DNA from: a virus
Taxonomy: Duplodnaviria > Heunggongvirae > Uroviricota > Caudoviricetes
DNA length: 64,000 bases
Virus record (IMG/VR): IMGVR_UViG_3300034105_001678
Span: 5,543 to 69,542 of that record
Strand: one strand, 5' to 3'
A program made the translations under genes and the position numbers. Within the stretch, counting starts at the first letter, position 1. Each line of letters begins with the position of its first letter. The notes beneath the pieces were generated by a model. That model saw only the letters and a program-made list of their open reading frames with translations. It was not told the DNA's origin and did not search any database. Of this stretch, positions 2,972 to 34,658 are shown in pieces.

Positions 2972-3122
2972 ATGCCCAAGAAATAGCAACTGTGCTGCAC
3001 TGGTGGAATATTGTTTGGCTGAGCCAATCATTATCAAGAGCTGCGCTGTTGCGCTGAGGAGAGCGCTTATACGGGCCAATCAATATTGTCCGGTGCCCAC
3101 TGATCTCCAGGACGTAAAAAAT
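2972..3122. repeat. IRE copy 4
   Basis: TTTTTTTATGCCCAAGAAATAG...AATATTGTTTGGCTGAGCCAATCATTATC...GGGCCAATCAATATTG...CCAGGACGTAAAAAATAATTT. Confidence 0.7.
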
Positions 3123-3146: not shown

Positions 3147-3178
3147 TTTGGTGGAATGAAATAGTTGTTATATCTTTG
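3147..3178 (+). promoter_or_regulatory. Early promoter (TTTG 3147-3150, TATCTTTG 3171-3178)
   Basis: Exact 20 nt spacer. Confidence 0.7.
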
Positions 3179-5084: not shown

Positions 5085-5232
5085 ATGCCCAAGAAGATCT
5101 GAGCACAGTGGCACAGGAGAAATAATGTTTGGCTTTCACCTTCCGACGCTGTGGGCCCTGGACTGAATTTGTTTGGCCGAGCCAAACATTATCGGACAGG
5201 TGGATCACCGGCCACCGGTTCTTCCCAGGAAA
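5085..5232. repeat. IRE copy 5
   Basis: TTTTTTTATGCCCAAGAAGATCTGAGCACAG...AATAATGTTTGGCTTTC...TTTGTTTGGCCGAGCCAAACATTATCGG...CCCAGGAAAAAATAATTT. Confidence 0.7.
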
Positions 5233-5312: not shown

Positions 5313-5561
5313 ATGTCAAATCTAAAAGATCAAGAAGTTAACTCTCATTGGACAAAGGTCGCTAAGAGAGTATTAGAGGGAAAAACTATTGTAGAAGTTC
5401 GTTATCTTAATGATGAGGAAATGGAAATGATGGGTTGGTATAAACGACCTGTATGTTTTGTCCTAAATGATGGTACAAGTTGTATGTTATCCTGTGATGA
5501 TGAGGGTAATGATGGTGGAGTTTTATTCTATGGAACTGATGGTGTTTTACCAGTATTATAA
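5313..5561 (+). CDS. hypothetical protein
   Basis: ATG at 5313 (MSNLKD...). Confidence 0.45.
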   Translation: MSNLKDQEVNSHWTKVAKRVLEGKTIVEVRYLNDEEMEMMGWYKRPVCFVLNDGTSCMLSCDDEGNDGGVLFYGTDGVLPVL

Positions 5562-5661: not shown

Positions 5662-5687
5662 CGGGGACAGGTTTCTGAACAAAAATT
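5662..5687 (+). promoter_or_regulatory. Conserved 5'UTR element CGGGGACAGGTTTCTGAACAAAAATT
   Basis: A near-identical 26-mer also sits at 9461-9486, in the same position between the -7 box and the ATG. Confidence 0.5.
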
Positions 5688-5691
5688 GAGT

Positions 5692-6438
5692 ATGGGAAAC
5701 GTACAATTATTAGGTAAAAAAGTAAACGAGGTTTACTCTACCAAAGATTACAACAAGTTTAAATTTCGTGGGGACAATCGTATTGTCAAAGACTCTCACG
5801 TAAGAGGTCTAATTGAGAATATGAAGTTACGAGGTTGGGAGCCAGGTTCATACGTGGTTATCAACGAGAAAGGTGAAGTCATTGACGGACAACATAGAGT
5901 AAGGGCGGCTATCCAAGTGGGTATTCCAGTTCATTACACTATTGAGAAAAAAGCGGGGTTTGAAACTATCCGTAACCTTAATAGAAACCAAAAGAACTGG
6001 GCGATAACCGACCACATTCACGGATTCGTTGAGGAAAACAATCCACACTACATTAAGTTAAACAACTTCATTAAGGAGTACAAAGAACTTAAAGTTACTG
6101 AATGTATGATGTTATGTAAAAATTCATTCTCATCAGTTCCTCGTAACGAGTTTGAGAGTGGTAACTTTACTACACGTGATATGGGTAAGGCGAGAATGTG
6201 GGGTGATTACATTATGTCACTTAAACCATTCTTTAAAGGTTACAATCGTTCAATCTTTGTAAGAGCGATAGTGAAAGTGTTATCAAAGAAACCAGAATTC
6301 AAGTTTGATAAATTCTTACATAAGGTTCAATTAAGACCAAACTTAATTACTATGTGTGGGACAGTTGAACAATATATATCAATGATTGAGGAGTTGTATA
6401 ACTTCGGTAGTCGTGATAAAATCAATTTAAGATTTTAA
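5692..6438 (+). CDS. ParB-like N-terminal domain protein
   Basis: Segment ...VVINEKGEVIDGQHRVRAAIQVGIPV... resembles the ParB/Srx fold motif (idGhHRl.Aa). ATG at 5692. Confidence 0.45.
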   Translation: MGNVQLLGKKVNEVYSTKDYNKFKFRGDNRIVKDSHVRGLIENMKLRGWEPGSYVVINEKGEVIDGQHRVRAAIQVGIPVHYTIEKKAGFETIRNLNRNQKNWAITDHIHGFVEENNPHYIKLNNFIKEYKELKVTECMMLCKNSFSSVPRNEFESGNFTTRDMGKARMWGDYIMSLKPFFKGYNRSIFVRAIVKVLSKKPEFKFDKFLHKVQLRPNLITMCGTVEQYISMIEELYNFGSRDKINLRF

Positions 6439-6942: not shown

Positions 6943-7150
6943 TGCAACTAATTTGCGCAGATCTGGCAGCAGAGGTGGATAATGTTTGGCCATCGTAACT
7001 ACTTGATTATCAATGATAGTCCTGGGCCAATCATTATCGGTGCTGTTGCGCGCAGCAGGTGTTCCCATTTATGCGCAGCAATTTGGCTGAATTATGCGCA
7101 ACTGGTGGCCAATCATTATTAGGGATGATCTCACCAGCATCCAGGGCACA
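6943..7150. repeat. IRE copy 7 (the longest, composite)
   Basis: Contains GCGCAGATCTGGCAG, GATAATGTTTGGCCATCG, GGGCCAATCATTATCGG, TGGCCAATCATTATTAGGGATGATCT and CCAGGGCACAAAAAAAAC. TGCGCAG-type sub-repeats occur several times. Confidence 0.65.
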
Positions 7151-7179: not shown

Positions 7180-7211
7180 TTTGGTGGAATGAAAATAGTT
7201 TTATATCTTTG
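7180..7211 (+). promoter_or_regulatory. Early promoter
   Basis: TTTG 7180-7183, TATCTTTG 7204-7211. Confidence 0.65.
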
Positions 7212-8020: not shown

Positions 8021-8165
8021 ATGCCCAAGAATCTCCGGCCACTGTGCACAGATGAAATTTGTTTGGCCGAGCCAATCATTATTAGAAGACGCCGTCGCCG
8101 GTCTTCTGTGAAGGTAAGAGCCAATCATTATTAGGGATGATCTGCACCGGTGGCCGGAAATAAAA
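8021..8165. repeat. IRE copy 8
   Basis: TTTTTTTATGCCCAAGAATCTCCGG...AAATTTGTTTGGCCGAGCCAATCATTATTAG...GAGCCAATCATTATTAGGGATGATCT... Confidence 0.7.
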
Positions 8166-12958: not shown

Positions 12959-13669
12959 ATGGAGAAACTAATATACCTTGTCGAGGAAAACGTTTTATTA
13001 ATGAAGAGACTCGAGAACCTAACCGTGTATGACGGGAACAGGTTCCACCTAACCATCACCTGGGAACAGGATGGTCCTAATATGCACGGTGTAATACTCG
13101 GGACCATAAAGGTGGACTCACCTCAGATATCAGTGGATCTAATCGACGGTCTGATGAAGACAGCAGCCCAGTACTTGTATGACAACAATATTGACCCGAC
13201 CGATAACATTACCTTCAGTGTCTCCAGGATATATATAATGTTTGGCCATAACAAGATTGATCTATTCGACTACATCCCACACAACCTGAAGAGGGACCTC
13301 ATCGGTGACACCCCAACTATAAAAGAAGTAGTAGATGGACACTATGGTAATATCAACCCAGATCAACTACCAGACTTCAACAGTGAATATGACAAACACG
13401 TAGCTGTTAAAATAAAAAGATTACAAGCCGTCTTTAAAGTATTACAAAGGGGTACCTTTGAAGGTGAACCCTATAGACTTAAAAGTCACCCTGAGATAGT
13501 TGTTAACTCGGACGACAAGAACTTCACCGTAGGTGGTAGGGTTGTTAGTCCAGACTTTAAACTATCCATTACAGGTGAAATTGAATCTGGACCACAGACT
13601 GTGGAGTTCAGAAACTTCCTTAGAGAGAAATTCAAAAACCTTGGTATAACCGATTCTAACTTTATTTAG
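12959..13669 (+). CDS. hypothetical protein
   Basis: ORF. Contains an internal ATAATGTTTGGCC motif at 13245. Confidence 0.45.
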   Translation: MEKLIYLVEENVLLMKRLENLTVYDGNRFHLTITWEQDGPNMHGVILGTIKVDSPQISVDLIDGLMKTAAQYLYDNNIDPTDNITFSVSRIYIMFGHNKIDLFDYIPHNLKRDLIGDTPTIKEVVDGHYGNINPDQLPDFNSEYDKHVAVKIKRLQAVFKVLQRGTFEGEPYRLKSHPEIVVNSDDKNFTVGGRVVSPDFKLSITGEIESGPQTVEFRNFLREKFKNLGITDSNFI

Positions 13670-13679
13670 TTGGGTTAGG

Positions 13680-13760
13680 GTTTGGGGCCAAACATTATTC
13701 GTATTACAATGGTTGTTTAGACACCTATCATTTTAGTCAATAATGTTTGGCCCTTATCTA
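13680..13760. repeat. Perfect palindrome GGGCCAAACATTATT...AATAATGTTTGGCCC flanking about 45 nt
   Basis: Arms at 13686-13700 and 13738-13752. Confidence 0.7.
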
Positions 13761-14030
13761 TTGCGGTCCTCCCTCCGGTCGGACCTTCATCCCGTATTCT
13801 TGCCAAACAAGTTCACCCTGTATGACATCCCGTAAGTTGTTTGGCAAAAGTGATGTATGACTTGGCGGGGGATCTGTCGATCCCCCTTCAGGTAGATACT
13901 AGAACCTGGTCTATAGGGATATAATTATAAACCCATTATACTGGTGTATGACAAGGGGGATGTATGACATCGGGATGAAGGGAGGGAGACGAGAGTCTCC
14001 CGACCGTATAACCATTATACTATTATATGA
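13760..14030. other. Candidate replication origin / strand-switch control region
   Basis: Four TGTATGAC(A/T) iterons at 13819, 13854, 13945 and 13961. IR TTGCCAAACAA / TTGTTTGGCAA at 13796-13848. Hairpin GGGGGATCTGTCGATCCCCC at 13869-13888. Long-range IR at 13771-13794 versus 13971-14006. Non-coding over about 650 bp, between the plus and minus gene blocks. Confidence 0.45.
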
Positions 14031-14349
14031 ACGGGTATAATCTGTATATATGTATGTATAAAAGTATACCCTTTATAGAAAAATATAAAAAACAGATCAC
14101 GATTGACGCAGGGGTCAATCCCCATAGAGTTGCAACCAAAGTGGGAGAAGGTGGTAAATTGTGGGTGATATATACTAGAACCCAAAAACCGGACACAAAG
14201 TCACTTATTTATGTATATAAAAAGATCCCGACAAAATGTCACTAAAAAAACCCCTGTTTACGGGTATAAAAACGGGAATAAATTAGGGGTCATTTACATC
14301 CCGTTATAATCGGTCGGAGAACGATGTTCTCCTCCCTCAAAGATAGTAA

Positions 14350-14640
14350 TTACTTCTTCTGTTTAAACAACTTTGTCCATATCTGACTACGGGGATTACC
14401 TAACTTCATCCCTATATACTTTCCAATAACTGAACCCAATATATAGAATACTACTATGGTAAAGTTTCCCTTTAGTAAATCATCTATGGCATAATAGGTA
14501 GACACAAGAGCCACCAAATTTAACCATACTGAATTTAAGAGTAGAGCCCCTATCTTATTCTGGTAGGTATACTTTATCTCTAACACCTTAAAGATGTTAA
14601 ATAAAGTTTGTGATGTTAATACTATAAGTTCTTTATACAT
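14350..14640 (-). CDS. small polytopic membrane protein (possibly GtrA-like)
   Basis: 96 aa with about 3 TM helices, immediately downstream of the GT2 gene. Similarity to GtrA is not demonstrable by eye. Confidence 0.35.
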   Translation of the reverse strand: MYKELIVLTSQTLFNIFKVLEIKYTYQNKIGALLLNSVWLNLVALVSTYYAIDDLLKGNFTIVVFYILGSVIGKYIGMKLGNPRSQIWTKLFKQKK

Positions 14641-14670: not shown

Positions 14671-15387
14671 CTACCCCCAATATCCGTGGGAATTTTTGAA
14701 AAATTCTGGGTTGTTTCTGTTTAGATATGACTTAATCATTATCTTGAACATCCATAATACTCCCTTGTTCTTGAACCTACGGGATGATGTATAGGTTCCC
14801 TCTATCTTGACTACCTTAAACTCTTTTGATGTCACCTTTTGTGATATCGAATAATCCTCAGCAAATAGGTGTTCAGGATTGTATCCTCCTACTGTCCAGT
14901 ATGCTCCTGAGTTCCATAATTGAAATCCTCCCACTGCAAAGGGTGTCCCCATATACAAGGATAAGGTCTGGAACATATCAAATACTCTGAATACCCATCT
15001 ATAAGGTTTATCTGTATAGAATGGAACTGTTACCAAATCTTTCCTGTGAGATAAACACTCTTCTATTATCTTTGGGTTGGTTAATAATATATCTGCATCC
15101 AAGAATAACATATACGGAGTTGTTACCAGGTTACTTCCGTTTAATCTTCCTTCTGATGGATATCCTCCTTTGATTACTTCTATATCCAATATATGTTTGA
15201 AGTCTACTTGTAATCTCTTTATCCATATCAATGAATCATTATCGTCTGATATATCTGCTATGATTAATCTTACCCCTGAGATGTGTTTTTGTCTTGATAT
15301 GTATTGAATACAATTATATAAGATTATTCCCTCATTTTTGGATGGGATTACTATTGTTAACCTCTTACGCAATGACCGTATATTCAT
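14671..15387 (-). CDS. glycosyltransferase family 2 (GtrB / Dpm1-like)
   Basis: N-terminal IVIPSKNEG and the LFLDADIL DxD motif are typical of GT-A / GT2. Confidence 0.6.
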   Translation of the reverse strand: MNIRSLRKRLTIVIPSKNEGIILYNCIQYISRQKHISGVRLIIADISDDNDSLIWIKRLQVDFKHILDIEVIKGGYPSEGRLNGSNLVTTPYMLFLDADILLTNPKIIEECLSHRKDLVTVPFYTDKPYRWVFRVFDMFQTLSLYMGTPFAVGGFQLWNSGAYWTVGGYNPEHLFAEDYSISQKVTSKEFKVVKIEGTYTSSRRFKNKGVLWMFKIMIKSYLNRNNPEFFKNSHGYWG

Positions 15388-17587: not shown

Positions 17588-17618
17588 CAAAGATATGGAT
17601 TATTTGGAATATCACAAA
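17588..17618 (-). promoter_or_regulatory. Minus-strand promoter (TTTG - 19 nt - TATCTTTG)
   Basis: The reverse complement reads TTTGtgatattccaaataatccaTATCTTTG. Confidence 0.6.
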
Positions 17619-27077: not shown

Positions 27078-27647
27078 TTAAATTGATTTATATAAACGTT
27101 TGTGATTATAAAGTGCTACTGGATTTTCTTCTGCGATTAATCCATATTCATTTCTTACCTTATCATAAATTGATTCAGTATCTTCATTGATGTGTTTTGC
27201 AATGATGTTAACAAACCCATAGTTAGATTCATCAACCACATCTTGTGGTGTTCCAGGTAAACCACAGTAACTCGCCTCACCAACTTCGCTGATGAACATC
27301 CCACTATAGAATCCCTTCAAACGAAATCCGTCTACGAACTTATCGGCGTTACACCAAATGAATACTGAGTTATCTTTCTTCGATAACAATGGAACCATCG
27401 TGTTATCTATAACATAAGCGGTTCCCCATTTTGTAGATGAATTTGAGTCTGTGAATTGACCAACTGAGAATAATCCTCCAGGACTGCCGTGTCCCATCAT
27501 CATTACCCTATCGTGTTCCTCAATGAGTTTTTTAACCTCATCTTTTGTAACTCCACCCGTGATTACTGTTTTGTTTGGAATGGACTCGTAGACAACATCT
27601 AAAAACGATGTGCTTGGGTCCGATGGATGTATTATTAATGTTTTCAT
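27078..27647 (-). CDS. hypothetical protein
   Basis: ORF. A promoter directly abuts the ATG. Confidence 0.45.
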   Translation of the reverse strand: MKTLIIHPSDPSTSFLDVVYESIPNKTVITGGVTKDEVKKLIEEHDRVMMMGHGSPGGLFSVGQFTDSNSSTKWGTAYVIDNTMVPLLSKKDNSVFIWCNADKFVDGFRLKGFYSGMFISEVGEASYCGLPGTPQDVVDESNYGFVNIIAKHINEDTESIYDKVRNEYGLIAEENPVALYNHKRLYKSI

Positions 27648-27651
27648 ATGA

Positions 27652-27683
27652 CAAAGATATGTATTTTTTTGGAATATACCAAA
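27652..27683 (-). promoter_or_regulatory. Minus-strand promoter, leaderless class
   Basis: The reverse complement reads TTTGgtatattccaaaaaaatacaTATCTTTG-TCAT-ATG. Confidence 0.55.
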
Positions 27684-27688
27684 ATATT

Positions 27689-28069
27689 CTAAATAATTTT
27701 AGAATTTACTTTTTCTACTATGTTTTTGTAATCTTCCATATAACCATCTTCGAATTTAGAACGGTCATTAAAGGTCTTAATTGAATGAAGTACAGTGGTA
27801 TGGTCTCTACCATTTAAAAACCCGCCAATCTCAACTAAACTGTATTTAAACTCACTTCTCATCAGGTTACAGAACATATGACGAGCGTCAGATACTTCAC
27901 GCTTATTGTATTTGCGTATAATGTCCTCAACTGAAATAGAGTGGTACTCTCCCACTATCTTTAAAATTTCGGTATGGGAGATTTTAGTTCTTCTAGACTT
28001 TGTAAAATTTTTGGGGATATCTTCTTTTTTGATACCAGGGAAAACGTAAGGGCTAATCCTTCCTTTCAT
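27689..28069 (-). CDS. DnaA domain IV (C-terminal DNA-binding domain)-only protein
   Basis: [40 protein letters not shown] aligns with the DnaA C-terminus ([40 protein letters not shown]). Confidence 0.7.
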   Translation of the reverse strand: [126 protein letters not shown]

Positions 28070-28122
28070 ATTTTGTTATTTTAAACAAACATACGAATAT
28101 ACTAAATAACTACCAAATATTT

Positions 28123-30987: not shown

Positions 30988-31029
30988 AATATATGTTTTG
31001 AGTACAAATATAAGATATTAATTTGAATA

Positions 31030-31064
31030 TACAAAAAAACCCCAAAAAAATTTGGGGTTTTATA
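31030..31064. terminator. bidirectional hairpin terminator
   Basis: aaccccaaa-aaaa-tttggggtt flanked by A and T runs. Confidence 0.6.
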
Positions 31065-34521: not shown

Positions 34522-34658
34522 AATGTTAGTAAGTTTGTACAAATGTATATATTTTTTCTGATATCACAAAATATATCACAAAAAAATCCCCAAATTTCTT
34601 TGGGGATTAACTGAAACACGACTCGTGTCAGTCCGAGGATACTATCCAGGGAGAGGTT

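Follow-up and report, generated by a model that had tools for sequence, protein, structure and literature searches.

The 64,000-nucleotide stretch of phage DNA analyzed here (the window; positions 5,543 to 69,542 of IMG/VR record IMGVR_UViG_3300034105_001678, Caudoviricetes) carries on its minus strand, at 27689..28069 in window coordinates, which are used throughout, a gene with an ATG start that encodes 126 amino acids followed by a stop codon. The encoded protein is a stand-alone DnaA domain IV; domains I–III of DnaA, and with them the parts that serve oligomerization, ATP binding, unwinding and helicase loading, are all absent from it. Judged from its sequence, the protein can safely be credited with a capacity for DNA binding through a helix-turn-helix of the DnaA type and with no other function of DnaA. 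Its most likely mode of action is monomeric binding to DnaA-box-like sites, without the ability to initiate replication. The reading of its role that we prefer, and hold tentatively, is that it targets the DnaA boxes of the host as a competitor or decoy.

The domain assignment rests on profiles, structures and predicted fold. Pfam model PF08299 (Bac_DnaA_C) matched residues 34–98 (27776-27970, minus strand) with 65.2 bits against a gathering score of 31.5 (E = 5.3e-18), and a phmmer search of the PDB returned as its top match 1j1v_A, the E. coli DnaA domain IV with a DnaA box (E = 1.6e-12), aligned without gaps over residues 34–122 and followed by the DnaA proteins of Aquifex, Bacillus and Mycobacterium. 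Two AlphaFold models, built with 24 and 110 sequences, reached predicted confidence (pLDDT) values of 80.5 and 90.5, respectively, and both showed the five-helix fold of domain IV, with values of 93–98 in the domain region of the second. The best Foldseek matches were 1j1v_A and 3pvp_A (TM 0.92–0.93, root-mean-square deviation 1.1–1.2 Å), with 1j1v_A first at a target-normalized TM of 0.93, 1.2 Å and 33% identity. The domain IV fold, as delimited by phmmer and Foldseek, thus covers residues 34–122 (27704..27970, minus strand), and PF08299 is also matched by all 110 members of a wider alignment of relatives. The earlier note on this DNA had proposed a match to the C-terminal, DnaA-box-binding domain of DnaA, and the Pfam score, the 1j1v_A alignment and the predicted fold bear this out. 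Its further proposal, that the AAA+ and oligomerization domains are lacking, holds as well: the full-length DnaA model TIGR00362 scored 70 bits against a cut-off of 343.9, with the match limited to positions 336–436 of 437, close relatives measure 121–127 amino acids, and library scans of the neighboring genes revealed no AAA+ domain. Since the protein fails the TIGR00362 test and has 126 amino acids only, the automated label ‘chromosomal replication initiator protein’ carried by relatives is an over-annotation, and “DnaA domain IV-like DNA-binding protein” would be the proper one.

The open reading frame has exactly the ends that had been given for it and contains the peptide quoted from it. 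In a search of 5.8 billion proteins its close family comprised 23 clusters, all of 121–127 amino acids and 49–90% identical to it. The ratio of nonsynonymous to synonymous substitution rates (dN/dS), measured against four relatives, was 0.16–0.21, which indicates purifying selection and hence a real gene; constraint was strongest in residues 1–16, and the linker, residues 17–33, was nearly neutral. The DnaA_C domain occurs in a single copy in the window. Among 185,579 bacterial and archaeal species genomes, searched with narrow patterns, no member of the close family was found, the three loci retrieved having only 24–32% identity, and PADLOC gave zero matches for the protein and four neighboring proteins.

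To compare the DNA-contacting residues with those of E. coli DnaA, we used the ungapped 1j1v alignment, in which the residue number in the phage protein is that of E. coli DnaA minus 344. According to a review, the helix 434–451 of E. coli DnaA recognizes TnCACA, the 3' portion of the box, the 5' TTA is read by Arg399 from within the minor groove, and the R399A and T435M variants are defective in box binding (PMC5742627). The base contacts were taken as D433, H434, T435 and H439 and the backbone anchors as R407 and T436, roles given in two papers that both cite Fujikawa 2003 (PMC5742627; PMC13451751). Residues R63, R88, D89, H90, T91, T92 and H95 of the phage protein are the equivalents of R407, R432, D433, H434, T435, T436 and H439, and the signature RDHTTVLH is the same in both proteins; signature and recognition helix together form residues 88–106 (RDHTTVLHS..., E. 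coli R432–E450), encoded at 27752..27808 on the minus strand. Across the close family (alignment A1, n = 24), R63, R88, D89, H90, T92 and H95 are invariant and T91 is kept in at least 90%. Conservation extends to a wider set of 131 short sequences, in which R63 is kept in all 131, H90 in 128, D89 in 123 and T92 in 118.

The position of Arg399 departs from this pattern. It is occupied by N55, in a basic loop (residues 52–57, RKYNKR; 27899..27916, minus strand, with the N55 codon at 27905-27907), and the residue is Asn in 21 of the 24 close relatives and Arg in the three most divergent, whereas 122 of the 131 wider relatives have Arg. N55 is flanked by the basic residues K56 and R57; compensation by either would be conjecture. 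Thus, of the contact Arg and Thr residues whose conservation the earlier note had proposed as a check, the major-groove and backbone set (R63, D89, H90, T91, T92 and H95) is intact and the minor-groove Arg is replaced; loss of key base-contacting residues, which it had named as grounds for refutation, was found in part, through the Asn at this position only. We infer that recognition of the 3' half of a box (TnCACA) is certain and that reading of the 5' TTA would be relaxed or altered, because the Arg399 equivalent is replaced. The subfamily-specific change from Arg to Asn is a new detail.

The same substitution could be read as a sign that the domain no longer binds DNA and has been reused for protein binding, for example as a mimic of DnaA domain IV that traps an Hda-like host partner. 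In the E. coli protein, residues at or beside P423 add to Hda binding, as described in a review that numbers them Leu423/Pro424 (PMC5742627), and the P423 equivalent varies, being V79 in the phage protein and most commonly Lys in the wider family. The strong constraint on all major-groove and backbone contacts would be hard to explain without DNA binding, and Arg is retained in the three most divergent members of the close family. We therefore regard loss of DNA binding as very improbable.

For the reading that we prefer, the proposed course of events would begin with early transcription of the gene by host RNA polymerase, unaided by phage factors. The product, a monomer that descends from DnaA domain IV and binds double-stranded DNA, would occupy DnaA-box-like sites, and its occupancy of the boxes at oriC and at DnaA-regulated promoters would block or uncouple host DnaA during takeover. 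Since the protein can only occupy sites, it would act as an occluder. Binding at or over DnaA boxes is a known way for proteins to block initiation, and CtrA and Spo0A are examples of origin-occluding response regulators, although they are unrelated and have their own sites; Hda, in turn, is a single DnaA module that serves as a regulator, the module in that case being the AAA+ and not the DNA-binding one. The argument for host boxes as the target starts from the contact residues, which are conserved at nearly the level of DnaA itself in 131 short relatives from very diverse phages. Retention of these residues across so diverse a family argues for one conserved target sequence, and the DnaA box would be the obvious candidate for a site common to the hosts of diverse phages. 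The gene moreover lies in a block of nucleotide-metabolism and takeover type (exonuclease, NT5C, ligase, methyltransferases, thymidylate synthase).

The earlier note had raised such a dominant-negative competitor of host DnaA at oriC, and the idea stays plausible, weakened though it is for this subfamily by the change from Arg to Asn. Several points weigh against this reading. With N55 at the Arg399 position, canonical boxes may be bound weakly or not at all, given that R399A abolishes box binding by E. coli DnaA (PMC5742627). The window covers 64 kb of a genome that is probably larger than 200 kb, and a cluster of boxes may lie elsewhere in it. A single domain is without the cooperativity of DnaA-ATP filaments, so that competition would need high expression. 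Finally, the sole experimentally studied DnaA-like DNA-binding domain outside DnaA that we found, that of GafA from RcGTA, belongs to a transcription activator (PMC9638019), and one match of our profile search is a sigma-70 fusion with DnaA_C repeats. If stand-alone DnaA DNA-binding domains do compete with host DnaA, they would represent a simple and general means of phage control over host replication, and a ready-made tool against initiation. A broader version of this idea, to which we give a somewhat lower standing as an unproven possibility, is a decoy initiator used widely by phages of Bacteroidota and other hosts, in which early occupancy of host boxes would switch off or rewire initiation while DnaA itself is left untouched, and the N-terminal peptide would recruit a partner; were this true, phages would have a new class of takeover factor, very widely distributed, that works by mimicking the DNA-binding module of the initiator. 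The promoter of ribonucleotide reductase can be named, as speculation, as one candidate for a DnaA-controlled target.

The N-terminal peptide is itself the most constrained part of the gene. Residues 5–14 (28028..28057, minus strand) carry the motif [IV]SPY[VI][FY]PG[LI]K, in short ISPYVFPG(I/L)K, which is followed by the variable linker and then by DnaA_C; the motif is not in DnaA, and the 30-residue N-terminal extension that holds it is absent from E. coli DnaA. When 1.84 billion representatives were searched by profile, 22,665 matched at E <= 0.001. Among the best 149 other representatives, 130 have 86–160 amino acids, and most align from profile position 2–6; short relatives of this size form at least 130 clusters. 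By strict pattern within the first 30 residues, the motif is present in 69 of the 130 short representatives, and in the wider set Y8 is kept in 101 and G12 in 110 of 131 sequences. In the close-family alignment P7, Y8, V9, P11, G12, I13 and K14 are invariant, and the motif codons show nonsynonymous differences (pN) of 0–0.05 against synonymous ones (pS) of 0.2–0.86. No Pfam model matches the motif, no other protein of the window or of the related loci carries it, and it is not in the three cultured-phage DnaA_C proteins that we translated. The pLDDT of the motif rose from about 50 with a shallow alignment to 74–79 with a deep one, which suggests that it may pack on the DnaA_C domain, perhaps on the surface that lies beneath domain III in full-length DnaA; in the proposed scheme it would cap this surface or, alternatively, dock a partner, and a role as docking peptide is equally conceivable. 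The motif, as defined from sequence alignments, is a new detail, and it delimits a SPYxFPG-DnaA_C subfamily, defined in this analysis, into which the 126-residue protein falls.

Members of the wider family also vary in architecture and setting. Some relatives (P0052, P0067, P0074, P0087, P0125) have 2–5 tandem DnaA_C domains, with neither AAA+ domain nor SPY motif, and one protein of 1100 amino acids among them (P0052) joins sigma-70 regions to DnaA_C repeats, again without the SPY motif. Distant members that do have the SPY motif (L009–L014) adjoin genes for heme oxygenase, bilin reductase, and Kyano_Gp96-like, Tad3-like and cREC_REC proteins; neighbors as varied as these indicate that the large phages in which the family occurs differ considerably, and in all of them a Bacteroidetes-type promoter precedes the gene.

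In design the protein is not unusual, and it adds to a class that is annotated and uncharacterized. At least 70 viral proteins in BFVD share the fold, those listed having 92–204 amino acids and one 368, and many are named “Chromosomal replication initiator, DnaA C-terminal”; the protein fits the class of phage proteins of about 90–200 amino acids with a single DnaA_C domain. Cultured-phage examples are gp22 of pelagiphage HTVC203P (177 amino acids), gp24 of Olleya phage Harreka_1 (145) and a protein of Microcystis phage Mae-JY35 (161), and further annotated carriers are Cellulophaga phages phi19:1 and phi19:3, Tenacibaculum phage Gundel_1 and Polaribacter phages P12002L/S. Where size could be seen, these have the same design, about 130–180 amino acids that are mainly DnaA_C, encoded among early or DNA-metabolism genes, and the 126-residue protein is 27–41% identical to them over part of the domain. 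In contrast to it, the three that we translated have Arg in place of N55 and no SPYxFPG motif. The Polaribacter phage proteins are annotated as ‘replication initiation protein DnaA’ only (PMC4615864), a gene for the DnaA DNA-binding domain alone occurs in most HTVC010P-type pelagiphages, where no functional tests accompany it (PMC8477408), and “DnaA” genes have been reported in ocean viromes, likewise without functional tests. The literature that we searched held no experimental study of a stand-alone phage DnaA_C protein. Stand-alone DnaA DNA-binding domains are among the commoner recognizable small proteins of marine and freshwater phages, and are routinely mislabeled “chromosomal replication initiator”.

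If the protein served replication of the phage itself, it could stand in for host DnaA as an adaptor that recognizes an origin, located in another part of the genome or at a diverged site, with its N-terminal motif bringing in the helicase or primase of phage or host. Such a role would agree with the usual annotation of these proteins, with the place of the gene amid DNA-metabolism genes and with the potential of the motif as docking peptide; in addition, HTVC010P-type pelagiphages have no DNA polymerase, and the gene for the DnaA DNA-binding domain is among their very few replication genes, with a role in initiation proposed (PMC8477408). We therefore examined the distribution of DnaA boxes. 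Sites matching TTATCCACA with at most one mismatch numbered 27 in the window against 28.7 expected, none of them a perfect box, and their density reached at most two in any 300-bp stretch, the same as in shuffled sequence. A further 133 kb of related loci (L001–L012) brought the non-redundant sequence to 197 kb, in loci that are homologous and not independent of each other; here perfect boxes numbered 3 against 3.7 expected, and the relaxed box TTWTNCACA occurred 12 times against 40 expected under a first-order model and 26 under a fourth-order model, with no enrichment under any Markov order tested. Avoidance of relaxed boxes was considered as evidence and set aside, because the depletion shrinks at fourth order and mostly follows a general shortage of TNCACA, and because the loci are akin. 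In two complete genomes that encode such proteins, boxes numbered 14 against 11.4 expected (Harreka_1) and 7 against 11.9 (HTVC203P), and neither genome contained a pair of boxes within 300 bp.

Thus, no box cluster was found in the window, the related loci or these two phage genomes, and in Harreka_1 a replication protein is annotated separately. Both observations favor a target in the host over one in the phage, and both speak against an origin adaptor, as do the missing unwinding and loading domains and the lack of a gene partner that is consistently adjacent across the wider family. An adaptor role appears rather unlikely to us.

The earlier note had placed the phage origin about 14 kb from the gene, at 13.7-14.0 kb, and this placement is not supported. 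The region is a convergent junction, at which the plus-strand block ends at 13669 and the last long open reading frame of the minus-strand block ends at 14671, and it contains no box with at most one mismatch. It also lies at the maximum of the cumulative GC skew, the minimum being near 52 kb, where the gene blocks diverge. By the standard rule an origin lies at the cumulative minimum, and the polarity at 13.7-14.0 kb is accordingly terminus-like and not origin-like, although the GC skew of phages mostly tracks transcription anyway. The divergent junction at about 51.6 kb had no notable repeats or boxes, and the window as a whole offers no evidence for a DnaA-box origin. DnaA-like boxes had also been reported in the intergenic repeats: the cited example, CATTATCCACCTC, is present, at 6972-6984 instead of 6965-6977 (7 nt off), yet it is the sole case, and the listed copies of the repeat have no CCAC there.

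The non-coding sequence at 13,755-14,360 is G+C-rich relative to its neighbors and contains the short repeats TGTATGACATC and ACGGGTATAA. A 258-nt core within it is predicted to form a multi-stem fold (z = -4.8 on the plus strand and -4.4 on the minus strand), and the sequence is about 98–99% identical to IMGVR_UViG_3300017774_002667, with flanks at 88–95% and one central segment, 13.89-13.96 kb, replaced. In Rfam and tRNA scans no match came from the whole window or, with the threshold relaxed, from 13.5-14.75 kb. These features suggest a structured RNA or a cis-element for packaging or replication at 13.7-14.0 kb, as opposed to a DnaA-box origin. The early block has intergenic copies of a hairpin element, AATAATGTTTGGCC ... 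GGCCAAWCATTAT, at 1722-1764, 3003-3045, 5161-5203, 6980-7040, 8051-8093 and 13685-13753, one of which is overlapped at its edge by the CATTATCCACCTC box; the element may serve to terminate transcription or to bind a protein.

We further analyzed the promoters of the window. The Bacteroidetes promoter pattern TTTG-N18-21-TAnnTTTG has 20 matches against 2.3 expected, of which 13 precede genes of the plus-strand block at 0.4-10.1 kb (e.g., 431-462, 3147-3178 and 7180-7211, all TTTG-N20-TAnnTTTG). Nine of these 13 have a conserved extension, TTTGGTGGA(A/T)T (GGTGGA(A/T)T), beyond the -33 TTTG, an element also written TTTGGTGGAATGA, and the set of 13 looks like a strong early promoter class. The DnaA_C gene has a Bacteroidetes-type promoter of its own, TTTG-N20-TATGTTTG at 28086..28117 on the minus strand, which ends 16 nt before the ATG. 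The same arrangement stands directly upstream in every relative examined, down to 33–55% identity, preceded in L007 and L012 by a terminator-like hairpin. Promoters of this type lead us to infer that the host belongs to the Bacteroidota and that its RNA polymerase, unmodified and unaided by phage factors, transcribes the gene, probably early, which fits the early action expected of a competitor of host DnaA. Consistent with this host range, fold relatives are found in cultured phages of Cellulophaga, Tenacibaculum, Flavobacterium and Olleya.

A second class of promoter, with a near-palindromic -33 region, TTTGGWATATTCCAAA, is present on the minus strand at 27652-27683, 17588-17618, 31005-31035 and 34540-34570, and also in L001, L003, L005 and L007. 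The gene that directly follows the DnaA_C gene is under its control in the window, as is the DnaA_C gene itself in the L007 lineage. The near-palindrome would be expected to be the operator of a dimeric regulator.

These promoters bring in a further explanation, namely that the protein is a transcription regulator of the phage, its domain binding a phage-specific operator derived from the DnaA box near promoters and repressing or activating phage genes; promoters of the host are conceivable targets as well. One candidate form would be that binding to the conserved GGTGGAAT element abutting the -33 TTTG silences the early block, while the N-terminal motif contacts a co-factor or RNA polymerase. 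DnaA also works as a transcription factor, the N55 substitution suggests a changed specificity, and the sigma-70 fusion P0052 joins DnaA_C repeats to a transcription protein. The TTTGGTGGA(A/T)T extension of the nine early promoters bears a weak resemblance to a half-box, its complement TTCCACC agreeing with TnCACA at 5 of 6 positions. Against this reading, CATTCCACC shares only 5 of 9 positions with the consensus 9-mer, the window shows no enrichment of TCCACA or TNCACA, and the palindromic second class suggests a dimeric regulator instead. Moreover, if each phage had an operator of its own, base contacts conserved nearly to the degree of DnaA would be unexpected among phages with little else in common.

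The precedent for such a regulator is GafA, whose N-terminal DnaA-like domain is needed for activation of RcGTA promoters and has Glu as its Arg399 equivalent; Hyphomicrobiales carry a separate small DnaA-like gene ahead of gafA, so that the DnaA-like part is a separate small protein in some lineages (PMC9638019). GafA and the phage protein thus share a DnaA-like helix-turn-helix in a virus-derived element and a residue other than Arg at this position (PMC9638019). As compared by description, GafA has a weak similarity to DnaA over about 40 residues, whereas the phage protein has a complete domain IV and a high DnaA score. GafA also has a sigma-like domain, as a fusion or as a partner, and interacts with the omega subunit of RNA polymerase (PMC9638019); library scans found no sigma-like domain in the 126-residue protein or in the adjacent genes, which sets it apart from the GafA type. 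On balance a regulator of phage genes seems doubtful, if far from negligible. Should such proteins prove to be phage transcription factors or origin markers, they would aid in mapping the regulatory sites of huge phages.

The window is part of an uncultured huge phage, which distinguishes its lineage from the cultured carriers of stand-alone DnaA_C proteins. The 16 kb around the gene had no DNA-level match among 50,697 phage records, and this places the lineage among uncultured phages. Relatives sit on contigs of 216–320 kb with many small genes and conserved synteny, in the order RNase_T-like exonuclease, genes of about 360 and 77 amino acids, DnaA_C, a gene of about 185 amino acids and, further on, methyltransferase and ATP-dependent ligase. 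The window holds the same block, together with NT5C, thymidylate synthase and further methyltransferases, and its ATP-dependent ligase has its best match in a 595-kb uncultured phage; the contig sizes, the shared block, the ligase match and the lack of a DNA-level match together support the assignment to a huge phage.

The neighboring genes of 189, 77 and 92 amino acids had no match in Pfam, PHROGs or NCBIfam, and the 369-amino-acid gene upstream matched two PHROGs, both of unknown function. The 189-amino-acid gene directly downstream (27078-27647, minus strand) is common to the L007 lineage and is not in L009 or L012, so that it cannot be a universal partner gene; its product is 75% identical to the L007 homologue, against an identity of only 55% between the DnaA_C proteins of these two phages. 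The early block of this presumably lytic huge phage also encodes a ParB-like protein (5686-6438, plus strand; phrog_12305, E = 3.5e-32).

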